Positions 10,429 through 46,680 of a DNA stretch of 64,000 nucleotides are shown here, piece after piece; position 1 is the stretch's first letter; each line of letters opens with the position of its first letter. This stretch comes from an uncultured Alphaproteobacteria bacterium (GTDB taxonomy: Bacteria > Electryoneota > RPQS01): positions 54,249 to 118,248 of the forward strand of contig CAYUIF010000007.1 in assembly GCA_964444755.1 (NCBI GenBank), in the 5' to 3' direction. The position numbers and the translations under genes were made by a program. The notes beneath the pieces are model-generated. The model saw only the letters and a program-made list of their open reading frames with translations, made no database searches and had not been told where the DNA came from.

Positions 10429-12948
10429 ATGATTCCCGCCTATCGTATTTTTTCCATCGTTTTGCTGGCATTGTTCATCGCTCACGGAGCAATGGCGCAA
10501 GGAAACCGTTCCGACCTTCCCAACTATGGAGACGGCAGTCAAGCCTTAACCGCTACTCCGGGAACTCAAGGAGGCGCAGCGGCCGGTTTCTGGAATCCGG
10601 CCGCGTGGGCGGCGATGCGGGAATTTGAAGCCAGTTTTCTCTGGAATGACAATAATATCACTTCCAAACGAATGGATAATTGGGCGTTGTTCACCGGGGG
10701 ACACGGAATCGGCTTTGCCATGCGCCACAATACCTATCGCTACGAGGATACGCAGGCATACCATGTCAATGATTACCAGTTGGCTTTATCCGGCGGAGAC
10801 CGCGATGATTATTGGGGCGTGGCTTACAACTGGTCCAAAGGCGACACTCGCGGGCTAAAGCGCGACAGCTATTTCACGCTCTCCAATATCTACCGTCCCT
10901 ATCGTTTCTTATCCATCGGCAATGCCGCCTCGCTGGCGCTACATGGCGATTATCGCGGCATCAGCGATGTCGGTCTGCGTCCCTTTAGCAATCATCGCGT
11001 GACGTTTTTCGGCGATGCCGCCTATGGTCGTTATGATAATTTCAATTCGCTGCAGTGGGGAGTCGGGCTGGAAGTACGGCCCTTCGATGGAATCCGACTC
11101 GCCGCGAAAATGTCAAAGCCATTGGGACAATATCAGGATAAAATCTATTCCATCAGCATGGGCATCTCCGTGGACGGCACGGGCTTCCACGTGATTCCGC
11201 ACTATGATAAGGATTCGGAACGTATCTCCACCAGCTATCTCATCCGCGTCGGATCGCAGGAACCCACCTTCAATCCGCGCCGGTTGATCAATCCCGATCC
11301 GCAATTGGTTACGGTCTCCATGAAGGGACAATTGGGATACCGCAAGGCGCGTTGGTTCGACCGCGACCGCATGGCGCTGCTCGATATGATCGAACTCATT
11401 GAGAACGCCAAAAACGATCCGGCCATCGAAGGCATTGCCTTCAATCTCTCCGGAATGTATGCGCCCCGCGAACTGCTGTGGGAAGTGCGGGAAAAGCTTA
11501 AAGAGTTCAAGGCGGAAGGAAAGATTGTCTACATGTACGCGGATCGTCTCGGCATGGAGTCCTACTACTTCGCCACCGTCGCCGATTACTTGTGGATGGA
11601 TCCCTCCGGCGGAGTCATGCTGCCCGGTTATGTGGCCGGTCGCACGTTCTGGAAAGGCTTCTTCGAAAAGATCGGACTCGGCGCGGAAGAGTGGCGGTAT
11701 TTCACCTATAAATCCGCCTTCGAATCTTTCTCCCGCAAGGAAATGTCCGAAGCGGATCGCGAACAGCGTTTAGCCTTGATTACCGATTTCTATGATGAGT
11801 GGCAAACCACCGTTTCCGAATCGCGCAACGTTGCTCCGGATATGCTCCGCTCCAGTCTGGATTCGACCGTGATCTTCCTGCCGGAGGAAGCGCTGGCTGC
11901 CGGATTGATTGATTCCATTGCCAATTGGGATGACGTCAAAGAACTCGTGGAAGGAATTACCGGCGAAGAGCCGGAATTGATCAGCGCGAAAGACGTGGAA
12001 GCCGACGAATATGCCGATCCCTACTGGGGCGAACCGCCGAAAATCGCCATCGTCTATGCCATTGGCGAGTGCGACATGGACAGCGGTATTCGCGGTCGTT
12101 ACACCTCGCGGGTGTTGCGTAAGCTGGCCAAGCGCAGCGACGTGAAAGCCGTAGTGCTGCGGGCTGATTCTCCCGGCGGCGATGCTTTGCCGTCCGACTT
12201 GGTGGCGCGGCAGATGACCACGGTTTCCAGTAAAAAACCGATGATCGTTTCGCAGGGCAGTCTGGCCGCTTCCGGCGGGTACTGGATCAGCATGAACGGC
12301 GACCGGATTTTCGCTTCGCCCTATACGCTCACCGGCTCCATCGGCGTCATCGGCGGCTGGGTGTGGAATAACGGATTCTCGGACAAGACCGGCTTCTCCT
12401 ATGATCACGTGCAAATCGGCGAGCATGCCGATCTGTCGCGCGGCGTTACGCTGCCCTTGATCGGCGTCACCATTCCCGACCGCAATCTTAGTATGCCCGA
12501 AAAGCAGCGCGTCGAAAAACTGCTGAAGGCTTACTACAAAGATTTCACCGGCAAGGTGGCGATGGGGCGCGGCTTGGAAGAGAGCTACGTGGATTCCATC
12601 GGTCAAGGTCGGGTGTGGTCCGGCACGCGCGCGCTGGAATTGGGGTTGGTGGACGAAATCGGCGGCTTGGATCGCGCCGTGACCTATGCTCGCGCTGCCG
12701 CGAAGCTTCCCACCAAAGGTCGCACCGTTGAGATCATCGAGTTCCCGCGTCGCAGTTGGGTCAATCCCGGCGATTTTATGTCGTCGCCGTCTCCCATCAG
12801 CGAGTTCGCCCGCTGGCTGGGCTTGAAGGAAGCTCCGGCCAATTTGGCGGACGATTACGAGCTGTCCTTCTATAAACGGATCAGCGCTAATCCGGGAGTT
12901 CCGCTCTATATGGTCGCCCCCGCCGACATTCCGGCAGAGGATAAGTAG
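10429..12948 (+). CDS. sppA: Signal peptide peptidase SppA (S49, two-domain) fused to an N-terminal predicted beta-barrel
   Basis: YKSAFE (Lys), RADSPGG, LAASGGY (Ser), TLTGSIGV, QGRVWSG; the first ~280 aa carry FWNPAA and alternating aromatic strands after a cleavable signal peptide. Confidence 0.88.
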   Translation: MIPAYRIFSIVLLALFIAHGAMAQGNRSDLPNYGDGSQALTATPGTQGGAAAGFWNPAAWAAMREFEASFLWNDNNITSKRMDNWALFTGGHGIGFAMRHNTYRYEDTQAYHVNDYQLALSGGDRDDYWGVAYNWSKGDTRGLKRDSYFTLSNIYRPYRFLSIGNAASLALHGDYRGISDVGLRPFSNHRVTFFGDAAYGRYDNFNSLQWGVGLEVRPFDGIRLAAKMSKPLGQYQDKIYSISMGISVDGTGFHVIPHYDKDSERISTSYLIRVGSQEPTFNPRRLINPDPQLVTVSMKGQLGYRKARWFDRDRMALLDMIELIENAKNDPAIEGIAFNLSGMYAPRELLWEVREKLKEFKAEGKIVYMYADRLGMESYYFATVADYLWMDPSGGVMLPGYVAGRTFWKGFFEKIGLGAEEWRYFTYKSAFESFSRKEMSEADREQRLALITDFYDEWQTTVSESRNVAPDMLRSSLDSTVIFLPEEALAAGLIDSIANWDDVKELVEGITGEEPELISAKDVEADEYADPYWGEPPKIAIVYAIGECDMDSGIRGRYTSRVLRKLAKRSDVKAVVLRADSPGGDALPSDLVARQMTTVSSKKPMIVSQGSLAASGGYWISMNGDRIFASPYTLTGSIGVIGGWVWNNGFSDKTGFSYDHVQIGEHADLSRGVTLPLIGVTIPDRNLSMPEKQRVEKLLKAYYKDFTGKVAMGRGLEESYVDSIGQGRVWSGTRALELGLVDEIGGLDRAVTYARAAAKLPTKGRTVEIIEFPRRSWVNPGDFMSSPSPISEFARWLGLKEAPANLADDYELSFYKRISANPGVPLYMVAPADIPAEDK

Positions 12949-13026
12949 TCGGCAGGTGAATTTGGCTAACCTTCCAATTATTTGTTTATAATTGGCATAG
13001 CCGGATTGCCGAGTCAGTCCTCCGGC

Positions 13027-13055
13027 TTGACTTGGATTGAATATTTTAATAAATT
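13027..13055 (+). promoter_or_regulatory. Putative sigma70 promoter of the small ORF-tRNA-Val-tRNA-Asp transcript
   Basis: TTGACT (13027-13032), 17 bp, TAAATT (13050-13055). Confidence 0.5.
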
Positions 13056-13094
13056 AAGTGTCTTATTTGGATCGTTGAACGGAAGGACAGTACC

Positions 13095-13394
13095 ATTTCC
13101 GCCAAAGCAAAACAAAAGGGTCCCGTCAAGGCCGCCGACAAGCCGCGGGAAGCGGAACGGACGGCGCCGCGTTTTACGGTTCCTTTCACGCGCAAAAACT
13201 ACATTGCGTTCGCCGTCGGGTTGGCGCTGGTGGTCTTCGGGTACGTTTTCTTATCCCAGCCGCCCGCCGAGGGCTTCTTGAGTCTTACGCTGGCGCCGAT
13301 CATGCTTGTGATTGGCTACTGCGTGGTCTTTCCTTATGCGATTATGGCTCGCGACAAGAAATCCGAGCCGACGGTCGCACCCAAGGGCGATTAG
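13095..13394 (+). CDS. DUF3098-like two-TM small membrane protein, 99 aa, apparent ATT start (not in the ORF track)
   Basis: Manual translation (M)SAKAKQKGPVK...FTVPFTRKNYIAFAVGLALVVFGYVFLSQPPAEGFLSLTLAPIMLVIGYCVVFPYAIMARDKKSEPTVAPKGD*; GGAAGGA at 13081-13087; no in-frame ATG/GTG/TTG between TAA 13050 and the first TM. Confidence 0.72.
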   Translation: MSAKAKQKGPVKAADKPREAERTAPRFTVPFTRKNYIAFAVGLALVVFGYVFLSQPPAEGFLSLTLAPIMLVIGYCVVFPYAIMARDKKSEPTVAPKGD

Positions 13395-13462
13395 CTCAGC
13401 TGGTCCAGAGCGCCTGCTTTACACGCAGGATGTCGGCGGTTCGAATCCGTCATCGCCCACCA
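13385..13462 (+). tRNA. tRNA-Val (anticodon TAC), CCA encoded
   Basis: Acceptor GGGCGAT/ATCGCCC, anticodon arm CCTGC-TTTACAC-GCAGG, T-loop TTCGAAT, ends ACCA. Confidence 0.97.
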
Positions 13463-13520
13463 TACGGGCGGCGAGCCGCCTGTTGGTTTGACTTTTTAAG
13501 TTTAAGTTTTCTCGTTTGTC

Positions 13521-13597
13521 GGGGTCGTAGTTCAGTTGGTTAGAACGCCAGCCTGTCACGTTGGAGGTCGCGGGTTCGAGCCCCGTCGGCCCCGCCA
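13521..13597 (+). tRNA. tRNA-Asp (anticodon GTC), CCA encoded
   Basis: GGGGTCG acceptor, anticodon arm CCAGC-CTGTCAC-GTTGG, T-loop TTCGAGC, ends GCCA. Confidence 0.97.
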
Positions 13598-13638
13598 AAG
13601 TTATAACGGTCAGAGTCTACTCTGACCGTTTTTCTTTT

Positions 13639-14100
13639 CCGCCGTGGCGGGTCTTGATCGCGGCGGCGAATCCCCAGATTCGCCCCGTCTTTGCCGAGGC
13701 TCCCGTCCCCGGGTGCCCGGAATGTCTTACTCGTCGAGGAGGGGGTAGCTTTCCCCCTGCTTCAGCGGGGGGATGCAAGGGGGGTATCTGGTCTCCCTCC
13801 GTTCACGGGGGGACGGAAGGGGGGGTCTTCTTTCAGCGTTTCAGCCTTTTCTTCTCGCGGGGGGATCAAAGGGTGGTGATTCTCGAGGCTCCCGTCCCCG
13901 GGTGCCCGGAATGCCTTTGTCGCCGTGGCGGGTCCGTGACCCGACCGGCGAAATGCGGGTCTCCCCCGACCTGAAAGCGGAATGAATATGGAGATCAGCG
14001 GGAGTGGTTTCCGTCACTCCCCTTCCGGGCAGATCGGGGATCTGCCTCGGCGATCAGATCAAATGCGTGAAGGGGTGACTCGGGAGAGTCACCACAGGGG
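13639..14100. repeat. REP-like palindrome cluster A
   Basis: Identical 30-mer at 13695-13724 and 13884-13913; CGCCGTGGCGG at about 13640 and 13921; hairpins at 14025-14048 and 14073-14095 recur at 46.8 kb and 45.1 kb. Confidence 0.8.
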
Positions 14101-14126
14101 CTAACGGCGATTTCAGTATTTAACAT

Positions 14127-14157
14127 CAACGGCCAGAGCATCATGCTCTGGCCGTTG
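14127..14157. terminator. Hairpin downstream of katA (probable terminator)
   Basis: 14-bp stem CAACGGCCAGAGCA/TGCTCTGGCCGTTG. Confidence 0.7.
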
Positions 14158-14193
14158 TTCGTTTCGTAATCCTCATTTGTGAAGGCGGCGGCG

Positions 14194-15627
14194 CTATCCC
14201 TTCAAAGCCTTGCGCACGCCGTCCGCGTAGGCGGGATCGGCCTTCTGAAAATGACCGAGCTGCCGTTCGATGATGTCCTGCGGCACTCCGCCCATCGCCT
14301 TAGCGATAGCGCGATGCAGCCGTTCCCGTTCCGCCGCCGAGAACAACCGATAAAGATTGCCCGGCTGCGTGTAGTCGTCGTTGCCGTCCCGATGATTGTA
14401 GCGGTCCGCGTCTCCCGAAATCCGCAGCGGCGGTTCGTTCAAACTTGGATCATCCTGCGGACCGCCGAAGCTGTTGGGCTCATAATTCACCGCGCCCCCG
14501 CCATTTCCGTCGAAGCGCATGGTGCCGTCTTTGTAGTAGGTATGCACCGGGCAGCGGGCTTTGTTGACGGGCAGACTTTCGTAGTTGACGCCCAATCGAT
14601 AACGGTGCGCATCGGCATAGGAAAAGATCCGCGCCTGCAGCATCTTATCCGGACTATGGCCGATCCCCGGTACGACATTGGCGGGCGAAAAGGCGGCCTG
14701 TTCCACTTCCGCAAAATAATTCTCCGGATTGCGGTTGAGTTCCATAATGCCGACTTCCATGAGCGGATAATCGCCGTGCGGCCAAACCTTCGTCAAATCG
14801 AAGGGATTGTAGGGCGTTTTTTCGGCGTCGGTTTCCGGCATGATTTGCACTTTGACCGTCCACTGCGGAAACTCTTTACGCTCGATGGCTTCGAATAAAT
14901 CGCGCTGATGGCTTTCCCGGTCGGTGCCGATAATGCGCTCGGCCTCCTCATCCGTCAGATTCTGGATGCCCTGCCGCGTCTTGAAATGAAACTTCACCCA
15001 GTAGCGCTTTCGATCCGCGCTGATGAAACTGTAGGTATGGCTGCCGTAGCCGTGCACGTGCCGGTAGCTTTTCGGCAAACCGCGATCCGAAAACAGAATT
15101 GTTATCTGGTGCAGACTCTCGGGCGAAAGCGACCAGAAATCCCACATCGCCTTATTGCAGCGCAGGTTGGTTTTCGGGTCGCGCTTCTGCGTGTGGATGA
15201 AATCGGGAAACTTGTACGGATCCCGAATGAAGAACACGGGCGTGTTGTTGCCGACCAAATCCCAATTGCCTTCTTCCGTATAGAACTTGATCGCAAATCC
15301 GCGCACATCCCGTTCCGCGTCGGCGGCGCCGCGCTCCCCGGCCACCGTCGAAAAACGCAGAAAGCACTCGGTTTTCTGGCCGATGCCCGCGAAGATTTTC
15401 GCCCGGGTATACTTGCTGATGTCATGGGTAACCGTGAACGTGCCGTAAGCGCCCGAACCCTTAGCGTGGACCACGCGTTCGGGAATCCGCTCCCGATTGA
15501 AGTGCGCATGTTTCTCCATCAACAGCCAATCTTGCACCAGCAGCGGTCCGCGTGGACCCGCCGTCAATGAGTTTTGAGTATCGGCGGCAGGAATCCCCGC
15601 GGCCGACGTCAGCTTGTTTCTCTTCAT
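14194..15627 (-). CDS. katA: Monofunctional heme catalase, small subunit (clade 3-like)
   Basis: [15 protein letters not shown] (distal His), [32 protein letters not shown] (proximal Tyr); 477 aa. Confidence 0.98.
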
Positions 15628-45351: not shown

Positions 45352-46680
45352 TCACTTGGTGATGGTGATTGTCAATGTTGCTTTCTCGGTTTGGGATAGG
45401 CCAACAACGGCGAAATACTTGCCTGCAGGCAAGGGCGGCAGCCTGAGATCGCAGGAGCCGCTGCCCGCTTTTAGAGGAAGCACTGCCAGTCGTTGCCCAA
45501 GAATATTATAGAGAGTCACTTCGTTTGCGCTAACCGGCAGCCCGGATATAAAGACTCGATCCCGTGCCGGATTGGGAAATGTTATCAGCATCTGGGATGA
45601 TGCACTGGAAGCTCTTGCACCGACGGAAACTGTGTCTGCGATTGTGTAAGAGTAAATCCCTCCGATAGATGTGGTAAGCCACAGCTCTCGGTCGAGGGAC
45701 GACACGAGCGCGAGGACGTTGCTTCCCCCGATAGGCAGACCTTGGGCGAGTTCGAGCCAGCTTGCACCTCCGGAAGTCGAATGATATACGTGGGTGGTTA
45801 TCGCGGCGAATAATTCTCCCGGTGTCTGCGGGGATACTACAACTGCCTGACCGTGACCGAGATGCGGCGGGAATGTCGTATCTGGCTCGATCCAAGTTGC
45901 GCCCGTGTCGGGGGTGTAAACAAAGTTCAGGAACCTTAACACCCATATGCCATTGGGCTGAAAGGGGTCAGGAGCAATGTCGGCCACCGCATTAATATTA
46001 GGAGTCGCTCGGAACGACGATCCATTGTCGTCACTGATTTGCACTCCTTCAAGGTTATAGGAAGAGGCGTAAATCCGGTTTTCCACCAAAGAATCGTAGA
46101 AAACACGCATCAGGGTCAGCCACGGGTCCACATTGAACCAGCTCGCACCTGCGTTTGTAGTCTTATATGTCCAACCCTGTCCCATATCGCCCCGTGCACT
46201 GGCGATGACCTCGTTCGGATTGGTGGGATTGATGGCAGCGGCCACGACGGCAAAATTGTCGGGTCCACCGAGGGGCAGATTGCTGCTTCGGTTTTCCCAA
46301 TGGATTCCGCCATCATGGCTGCGAACAATACCTGCAGTACCATTTGCCAGCCATAGCGTGTCCGGATGATGAAGATCAATGTCTATGTCAAATACATTCG
46401 AGTGCCGGAATCCCAGCGTATCCCACGTCAGCCCATGGTTAGTGGTCACAAAGAGTCCACCCTCGCGCGTCGAGTCCCAGAAGACATCCAGTGCCGACGC
46501 ATAGATGGTATTCGGATTGGTTGGACTCACTTCGATATCGGTAATTTCCTCCGGTGCCAAACCCACATAAGTCCACTCGTTGATACCAGCGTTGACTTCA
46601 CTCGCAGCAAACCAATAGGAGAGACACAGAAATGTTAAAATCCCGAAGGAATATGCCTGTTGTCTATTGCTCATACACAT
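45352..46680 (-). CDS. Secreted BNR/Ycf48-like beta-propeller protein with T9SS type A C-terminal domain
   Basis: Asp-boxes TTNHGLTW, SHDGGIHW, TTNAGASW, SDDNGSSF, STSGGASW; tail TFPNPARD...YNILGQ...GKYFAVV. Confidence 0.82.
   Translation of the reverse strand: MCMSNRQQAYSFGILTFLCLSYWFAASEVNAGINEWTYVGLAPEEITDIEVSPTNPNTIYASALDVFWDSTREGGLFVTTNHGLTWDTLGFRHSNVFDIDIDLHHPDTLWLANGTAGIVRSHDGGIHWENRSSNLPLGGPDNFAVVAAAINPTNPNEVIASARGDMGQGWTYKTTNAGASWFNVDPWLTLMRVFYDSLVENRIYASSYNLEGVQISDDNGSSFRATPNINAVADIAPDPFQPNGIWVLRFLNFVYTPDTGATWIEPDTTFPPHLGHGQAVVVSPQTPGELFAAITTHVYHSTSGGASWLELAQGLPIGGSNVLALVSSLDRELWLTTSIGGIYSYTIADTVSVGARASSASSQMLITFPNPARDRVFISGLPVSANEVTLYNILGQRLAVLPLKAGSGSCDLRLPPLPAGKYFAVVGLSQTEKATLTITITK

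Follow-up and report, generated by a model that had tools for sequence, protein, structure and literature searches.

In Escherichia coli, secG and the downstream tRNA gene leuU are transcribed from one promoter as a single RNA; RNase P cuts this transcript at the 5' end of the tRNA, and the half-life of the secG mRNA afterwards is less than 30 s (Mohanty and Kushner, PMC2241853). Overlapping or nested selB and selC genes were described in Proteobacteria and Nitrospirae in a purely bioinformatic study, and in Dyella and Luteibacter the selB stop codon was found inside tRNA-Sec (Mukai 2021, PMC8124441). The selB-selC overlap is highly conserved and not essential, and folding and processing of the tRNA were proposed to repress the full-length protein (PMC8124441). 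Here, we analyzed a locus in a window of 64,000 nucleotides (the whole stretch of DNA under study) in which the gene of a predicted small membrane protein of the DUF3098 family runs into a tRNA-Val gene. By kinship, the host belongs to an FCB-group candidate phylum that also includes Candidatus Tariuqbacter arcticus (Ca. Electryoneota at NCBI).

As in secG-leuU, the mRNA of a small membrane protein would be co-transcribed with a downstream tRNA, which is judged here from sequence patterns alone. The two loci differ in that secG starts with AUG and ends at a stop of its own, 14 nt ahead of leuU, whereas the cut would here remove the stop, and in that SecG (PF03840) belongs to another family than DUF3098. 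The idea, raised by this analogy, that DUF3098 is the SecG of these organisms was rejected because a normal secG (PF03840, 77.9 bits) is present elsewhere in the genome. As in the selB-selC pairs, a bacterial ORF enters a same-strand tRNA, and the same competition between processing and protein production has been proposed. However, those pairs combine the specialized tRNA-Sec with its own elongation factor, and their stop falls on tRNA positions 46-48 or past the end of the tRNA, whereas here a single-copy housekeeping elongator tRNA is overlapped by the gene of an unrelated membrane protein, with U8-A9-G10 as the stop.

In animal mitochondria, tRNA excision sets the ends of mRNAs, coding sequences may overlap tRNAs, and polyadenylation completes stop codons; these organelles have no tmRNA. 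The present locus differs in having a complete UAG within the tRNA. The infC gene of E. coli starts at AUU, a codon that IF3 discriminates against, implying low, IF3-sensitive initiation. The DUF3098 gene resembles infC in its conserved near-cognate AUU-type start and good Shine-Dalgarno sequence, but it is unlinked to IF3, its start codon drifts among AUU, AUC, and AUA, and no autoregulatory logic is evident. The kind of arrangement is already known; new are the gene family, the single-copy housekeeping tRNA, the depth of conservation from family to phylum, and the conserved AUU-type start. Our literature search turned up a passing mention of DUF3098 in a single paper; no publication about an ORF that ends in tRNA-Val, or about such a coupling of tmRNA and RNase P, was found.

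The features of the locus, in window positions, are as follows.

13027-13055, forward strand: putative sigma-70-type promoter, with -35 TTGACT (13027-13032), a 17-nt spacer, and -10 TAAATT (13050-13055), recognized by sequence pattern.
13081-13087, forward strand: Shine-Dalgarno sequence GGAAGGA, 7 nt before the start codon, from reading the sequence and from similar sites in relatives.
13095-13097, forward strand: probable non-canonical start codon ATT, from the Shine-Dalgarno sequence upstream and the homologous codons in relatives.
13095-13394, forward strand: DUF3098 gene, 99 codons plus stop, from Pfam PF11297 and an alignment of 20 orthologues.
13385-13394, forward strand: 10-nt same-strand overlap, in which G1 of the tRNA ends codon AAG, GGC GAT corresponds to tRNA positions 2-7, and TAG is U8-A9-G10.
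13385-13462, forward strand: tRNA-Val(UAC), CCA encoded, sole copy in the genome, from ARAGORN, Rfam, and a genome-wide tRNA scan.
13521-13597, forward strand: tRNA-Asp(GUC), sole tRNA-Asp gene of the genome, from ARAGORN, Rfam (67.3 bits), and the genome tRNA scan.
13605-13640, forward strand: putative intrinsic terminator, with an 11-bp stem (13605-13630) followed by the T-run TTTCTTTTCC, recognized by sequence pattern.

The original prediction placed a stop codon TAG at 13392-13394 and the start of the tRNA at 13385, giving a 10-nt overlap. These coordinates proved exact in the sequence, which reads AAG GGC GAT TAG at 13383-13394, and in both ARAGORN and the Rfam tRNA model RF00005 (match at 13385-13459, 69.7 bits, E = 8.6e-15), two independent callers that concur on a 5' end at 13385. 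The cloverleaf, the anticodon TAC, and the 7-bp acceptor stem are all present. The acceptor stem GGGCGAT/ATCGCCC, together with the discriminator A and the encoded CCA, fixes the mature 5' end at G13385, so that the overlap is exactly 10 nt. The frame into this TAG is open for 113 codons, from 13053 to 13394, and includes the DUF3098 domain. The locus is a genuine coding gene with its stop codon inside a mature tRNA.

The Pfam profile PF11297 matched with 27.6 bits against a cut-off of 25, spanning 13185-13352 and profile positions 2-66 of 67. The N-terminal tail of the product is basic and precedes helix 1 (~13203-13253); a short loop connects this helix to helix 2 (~13284-13346), and the C-terminal tail, which ends in K-G-D, is variable. 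The product contains FTRKNY, which fits the F-x-x-x-N-Y motif of the family, and the two hydrophobic helices expected of it. F31, N35, G49, S63, P68, and P80 were invariant in the 20 aligned orthologues. The sequence and the positive-inside rule predict two membrane helices in an in-in topology, with both termini in the cytoplasm. An orthologue comparison showed that the protein is conserved across phyla while synonymous sites vary freely. The Pfam domain, the orthologue alignment, and in-frame indels show that this ORF is a real, conserved coding gene, in keeping with the earlier reading of its product as a membrane protein, with two helices predicted from the sequence.

The ORF as first listed had the correct stop position. 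Its listed start, TTG 13221, falls within the first membrane helix, and the true start lies further upstream. From the in-frame TAA at 13050 up to TTG 13221, the frame contains no ATG, GTG, or TTG. Because the DUF3098 domain extends from 13185 with no canonical start upstream, and because of the Shine-Dalgarno sequence and the family-wide Ile codons, 13095-13394 was taken as the gene, with ATT 13095 as the most likely start. Nearly all loci of the window's own family (f1) have ATT, ATC, or ATA at the homologous start, and f1 relatives carry AAGGAG, GAGGAG, or AGGAG 5-8 nt ahead of it; in several f1 loci, an in-frame stop lies just 1-6 codons upstream. In the sister family (f2), this codon is GTG or ATG. 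The f1 start is conserved as non-canonical, yet it drifts among three Ile codons. One locus (L007, in G022) has CAT at the start position, where a 1-nt assembly error is possible. The conserved AUU-type start behind a Shine-Dalgarno sequence, with no canonical alternative, has the sequence features of an IF3-sensitive, infC-like start. Frameshifting from a +1-frame TTG at 13074, considered in place of the ATT, was rejected; inspection by eye revealed no Shine-Dalgarno sequence, no slippery heptamer (X XXY YYZ), and no conservation of this codon.

Mechanical ORF calling yields only a 57-codon TTG ORF, and this result, with the missing canonical start, could suggest an artefact or chance, in which the frame is untranslated or the tRNA boundary is miscalled. 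We find this scarcely credible. The Pfam score exceeds the cut-off, the protein is conserved across phyla over freely varying synonymous sites, and the indels are in frame; the tRNA end, in turn, is set by the 7-bp acceptor stem and agreed on by both callers. For practical purposes, the comparative data refute an artefact.

The site at 13027-13055 is the sole forward-strand promoter-like site within 12700-14300. The pattern TTGAC[AT]-17-TA[AT][AT]TT was found in all 19 of the f1/f2 loci examined, with a promoter-to-start distance of 56-74 nt in 18 loci and 116 nt in one. Among the f1/f2 loci, no conserved promoter was found inside the ORF, where the best matches were weaker and inconsistent in position, and the last 25-40 nt ahead of tRNA-Val showed no conservation across relatives. 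The upstream gene (10429-12948) ends ~80 nt before the promoter; its product, a signal peptide peptidase SppA (Peptidase_S49, 192 bits), carries a long extension at the N terminus. One promoter ahead of the ORF, none between it and tRNA-Val, and a terminator past the tRNAs make up a layout of the secG-leuU kind, as far as promoter and terminator patterns can indicate.

These data bear on the possibility that most tRNA-Val and tRNA-Asp is expressed separately, from a promoter within or just after the ORF, with only rare read-through from upstream; the overlap would then be nearly inconsequential. Genes for tRNAs often have their own promoters, and weak sigma-70-like matches (6-9 of 12) do occur inside the ORFs. 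However, these internal matches differ in position in every genome, conservation is absent from the 40 nt that precede the tRNA, and the sole conserved promoter is upstream of the ORF in 19/19 loci. Moreover, an mRNA that contains the stop must include the 5' end of the tRNA and, without a terminator, the whole tRNA. Separate expression therefore seems very unlikely. With the only conserved promoter upstream of the ORF, mRNA and tRNA most likely form one transcript, which agrees with the earlier idea of an ORF linked to a tRNA precursor.

The genome is 98.6% complete, and its genome-wide tRNA scan gave one copy each of tRNA-Val(UAC) and tRNA-Asp; relatives likewise have a single close copy of tRNA-Val(UAC). 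Since both tRNAs are single-copy genes in the operon of the ORF, each such tRNA would be cut from an ORF-carrying transcript. The tRNA-Val set of the genome comprises UAC and CAC only, and tRNA-Val(GAC) was not found.

The stop codon lies 3' of the RNase P site, so a cut between A13384 and G13385 would split codon AAG and leave an mRNA without a stop. The original prediction of a non-stop mRNA thus follows from the stop position, and the required machinery is largely represented: the genome contains a type A RNase P RNA (300.9 bits) and encodes SmpB. A tmRNA was not found in the assembly by ARAGORN or Rfam, probably owing to an assembly gap. Among the 25 genomes searched (the host's own and 24 relatives), 17 had a tmRNA, and the tags of relatives (ANNTYALAA and ADDHSYALAA) show the canonical ...YALAA end. 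A weak match beside smpB at a contig end was rejected as a tmRNA because it turned out to be a tRNA.

It is conceivable that selection keeps the stop inside the tRNA as a dedicated coupling. The RNase P cut would give a non-stop mRNA whose tmRNA-tagged product is degraded and, equally, terminating ribosomes would delay tRNA maturation, so that the protein level would be tied to tRNA-precursor flux or translational capacity. The RNase P RNA and SmpB of the genome and the tmRNAs of the relatives are consistent with this, the predicted cytoplasmic C terminus would present the tag to proteases, and the conserved weak start codon suggests tuned expression. Against it, the cut secG mRNA is gone within 30 s anyway (PMC2241853). 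By analogy with secG, whose mRNA is destroyed after the RNase P cut despite an intact stop, a stop inside the tRNA may add little. Taking these points together with the comparative evidence below, we regard such a coupling as rather unlikely.

A Pfam search of 40 relatives gave 26 DUF3098 loci. In 24 of these, tRNA-Val(UAC) lies downstream of the gene, usually with tRNA-Asp next, and 16 of the 24 have the 10-nt overlap at the tRNA TAG. A one-genome-per-species scan gave 75 further loci, in MAGs labeled Latescibacterota, KSB1, Zixibacteria, Ignavibacteria, Gemmatimonadota, and others, and extra loci were added by fetching the region ahead of tRNA-Val in genomes missed by the Pfam search. In total, the identical 10-nt overlap was found in 36 of the 63 loci with tRNA-Val downstream. 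Within f1, 18/21 genomes and 10/11 genera have it; beyond f1, it occurs in family f8 of the same phylum, a KSB1 pair, a 13-member Latescibacterota clade, and one other MAG. The conservation in relatives that had been proposed as a check is thus borne out for these loci, and it fails in the other 27/63, which stop on their own. It had also been proposed that the prediction would fall if the ORF were untranslated or if orthologues stopped before the tRNA; neither holds in general, as most f1 orthologues stop inside it.

In the overlapping loci, the tRNA begins 35-68 nt after the conserved helix-2 proline codon; at least nine distances occur, all congruent to 2 mod 3, whereas in the non-overlapping loci the frames were split 6/9/7. 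Tails that vary in length and always remain in frame suggest that the frame to the tRNA TAG is under purifying selection and that the ORF is translated to that stop. One genome (G005, L146) carries a ~75-codon in-frame insertion in the C-terminal tail, which adds hydrophobic segments, and its ORF still ends in ...KGD at the tRNA-Val TAG. On a short and poorly resolved protein tree, the overlap state falls into several separate clades, with 7-8 changes by parsimony, at least two of which are forced by well-supported branches.

A dedicated coupling would be in line with the retention of the overlap in f1 and other clades through at least four in-frame indels (one being the 75 codons of G005), and with the absence of premature stops from the variable tails. 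The two large overlap clades show at least 76 amino-acid replacements in these tails and 0 premature stops, against ~4 nonsense events expected under neutrality from a mutational stop-to-nonsynonymous ratio of 0.057. However, selection on the tail itself could account for the missing stops; this suggestive result fits selection on the tail or on the overlap alike and does not tell the two apart. A conserved alternative RNA structure was considered as well. The MFE fold of 13300-13470 pairs the GYCVV codons with the 5' half of the tRNA (z = -2.2), and it was judged to be due to chance because the synonymous sites of these codons vary freely in 55 orthologues; in genus g10, the residues themselves differ.

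Several relatives have other layouts at the junction. The same-genus genomes G001 and G002 end in ...APKA-TAG, followed by an inserted repeat of ~110-115 nt before the tRNA, and in G004 the gene stops at its own TAA, ahead of a spacer of ~58 nt that contains repeats. The DUF3098 gene and tRNA-Val are intact in each of these genomes after junction insertions of 60-115 nt. Three close relatives have thus lost the overlap and kept both genes, indicating that the overlap is old but dispensable, and these losses, like the own stops of 27/63 loci, argue against a dedicated coupling. The junction repeats lie in L003 at 1253-1370 (G002), L144 (G001), and L145 (G004). The G001 insert includes the G-run motif tgggggaatcaaggggggatg, resembling G-run elements 3' of tRNA-Asp (window 13680-13930), and the inserts have the appearance of small mobile repeats that target the flanks of tRNAs.

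In other lineages, the DUF3098 stop lies 2-150 nt ahead of the tRNA. In three of these lineages, the distance is 2 nt and the stop is in frame with the tRNA TAG, so that a single point mutation would interconvert the two states. The gene was also observed in other FCB-group lineages directly before tRNA-Asp, before tRNA-Lys(UUU) plus tRNA-Leu(GAG), or with no tRNA; the tRNA-Asp and tRNA-Lys/tRNA-Leu layouts jointly cover L042, L060, L061, L063, L064, L059, L067, L071, L077, and L082. At L093 (2765-2779), the gene ends at a TAG at positions 13-15 of tRNA-Asp. In Latescibacterota, the DUF3098 gene has an ATG start and still ends in tRNA-Val; at L050 (357-2825), it closes, almost without gaps, what we take from reading the translations to be an rpsP-rimM-trmD-rplS operon. 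In MAGs labeled Chlorobiaceae and Bacteroidota, it follows ABC transporter genes that, judging by their translations, are presumably lolE-like and lolD-like.

Across the genome, TAG occupies positions 8-10 in 25/43 tRNA calls, which makes a reserve stop generally available. The open frames that lead into these TAGs mostly span 0-50 codons; the DUF3098 frame is the longest. Among the long frames of the genome that enter tRNAs, sequence comparison points to only one real second overlap, that of a MerR-family gene (MerR_1, 74.4 bits; contig C23, ~45390-45761), which ends in ...SGRGAAR at a TAG at positions 21-23 of tRNA-Pro(GGG). This 23-nt same-strand overlap recurs in 18/30 loci of relatives (L112-L141), the remainder stopping 2-55 nt earlier. 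The MerR copy of this genome has no ATG, GTG, or TTG upstream of its HTH domain, and its orthologues use ATG or GTG. Other candidates were rejected: frames running into tRNA-Thr(CGU) and tRNA-Gln(UUG) appear non-coding, and a 91-nt ARAGORN 'tRNA-Cys' on contig C4 is a false call within an aminotransferase-like ORF.

The MerR/tRNA-Pro case indicates that the overlap is not specific to the DUF3098 membrane protein. An unrelated gene that overlaps a tRNA alike points to a general architectural cause and speaks against a dedicated coupling. As regulation, the earlier idea of a built-in coupling to tRNA precursor flux is not supported, and it is weakened by the three losses in close relatives, the many own stops, and the MerR parallel.

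On balance, the overlap has probably been tolerated over long times as a by-product of tight co-transcription, rather than serving as a dedicated control device. The course of events that we infer comprises co-transcription, initiation at AUU, RNase P cleavage of the precursor, and a fate for the cut mRNA. The single sigma-70-type promoter (13027-13055) would give a ~570-nt transcript that ends at the terminator past tRNA-Asp, with the ORF in its 5' leader, ahead of the cell's sole genes for tRNA-Val(UAC) and tRNA-Asp(GUC). Start codons of the AUU, AUC, and AUA type are quantitatively weak in E. coli, and the weak AUU start behind a good Shine-Dalgarno sequence probably acts as a throttle on protein synthesis under a very active tRNA promoter. 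A gene that lies tightly against a co-transcribed tRNA, with its frame in register, would find a stop in that tRNA a few codons on; ribosomes would end at the RF1-read UAG supplied by the near-universal U8-A9-G10 of the tRNA.

Normal termination at this borrowed stop would be possible on the uncleaved precursor only. The terminating ribosome would cover about the first 20-25 nt of the tRNA, and translation and RNase P cleavage would thus be mutually exclusive for each molecule at any moment. Once cut, the leader mRNA would probably decay fast from its 3' end, as the secG mRNA does after leuU cleavage, and ribosomes already in transit on it would need tmRNA-SmpB. Two observations run counter to parts of this account. 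The overlap in 18/21 f1 genomes and the lack of premature tail stops could mean that the overlap itself is under selection, contrary to a by-product. In addition, the ATG start that accompanies the overlap in Latescibacterota, KSB1, and f8 does not fit the idea of a throttle.

A bolder proposal, which we consider unlikely, is that genes in tRNA leaders that end inside the tRNA (DUF3098/tRNA-Val and MerR/tRNA-Pro) form a selected regulatory class in uncultured FCB-group bacteria. On one precursor molecule, a passing ribosome would preclude RNase P cleavage and vice versa. How much tRNA-Val(UAC) and tRNA-Asp is made would then reflect how much of the protein is intact and how much carries a tmRNA tag, and the reverse would hold as well, with an IF3-sensitive AUU start tuning the system further. 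If true, translational load and tRNA supply would feed back on each other directly.

Whole families, and several candidate phyla, can retain a stop codon that a gene borrows from a housekeeping tRNA, and such stops are not confined to organelles or to selB-selC. DUF3098 emerges as a family habitually encoded directly upstream of tRNA genes, whether Val-Asp, Asp, or Lys-Leu. Genes that combine a non-canonical start with a tRNA overlap will be shortened or missed by automatic annotation. If the overlap is functional, the locus would offer a simple natural system for the competition of the ribosome, RNase P, and tmRNA on one RNA.
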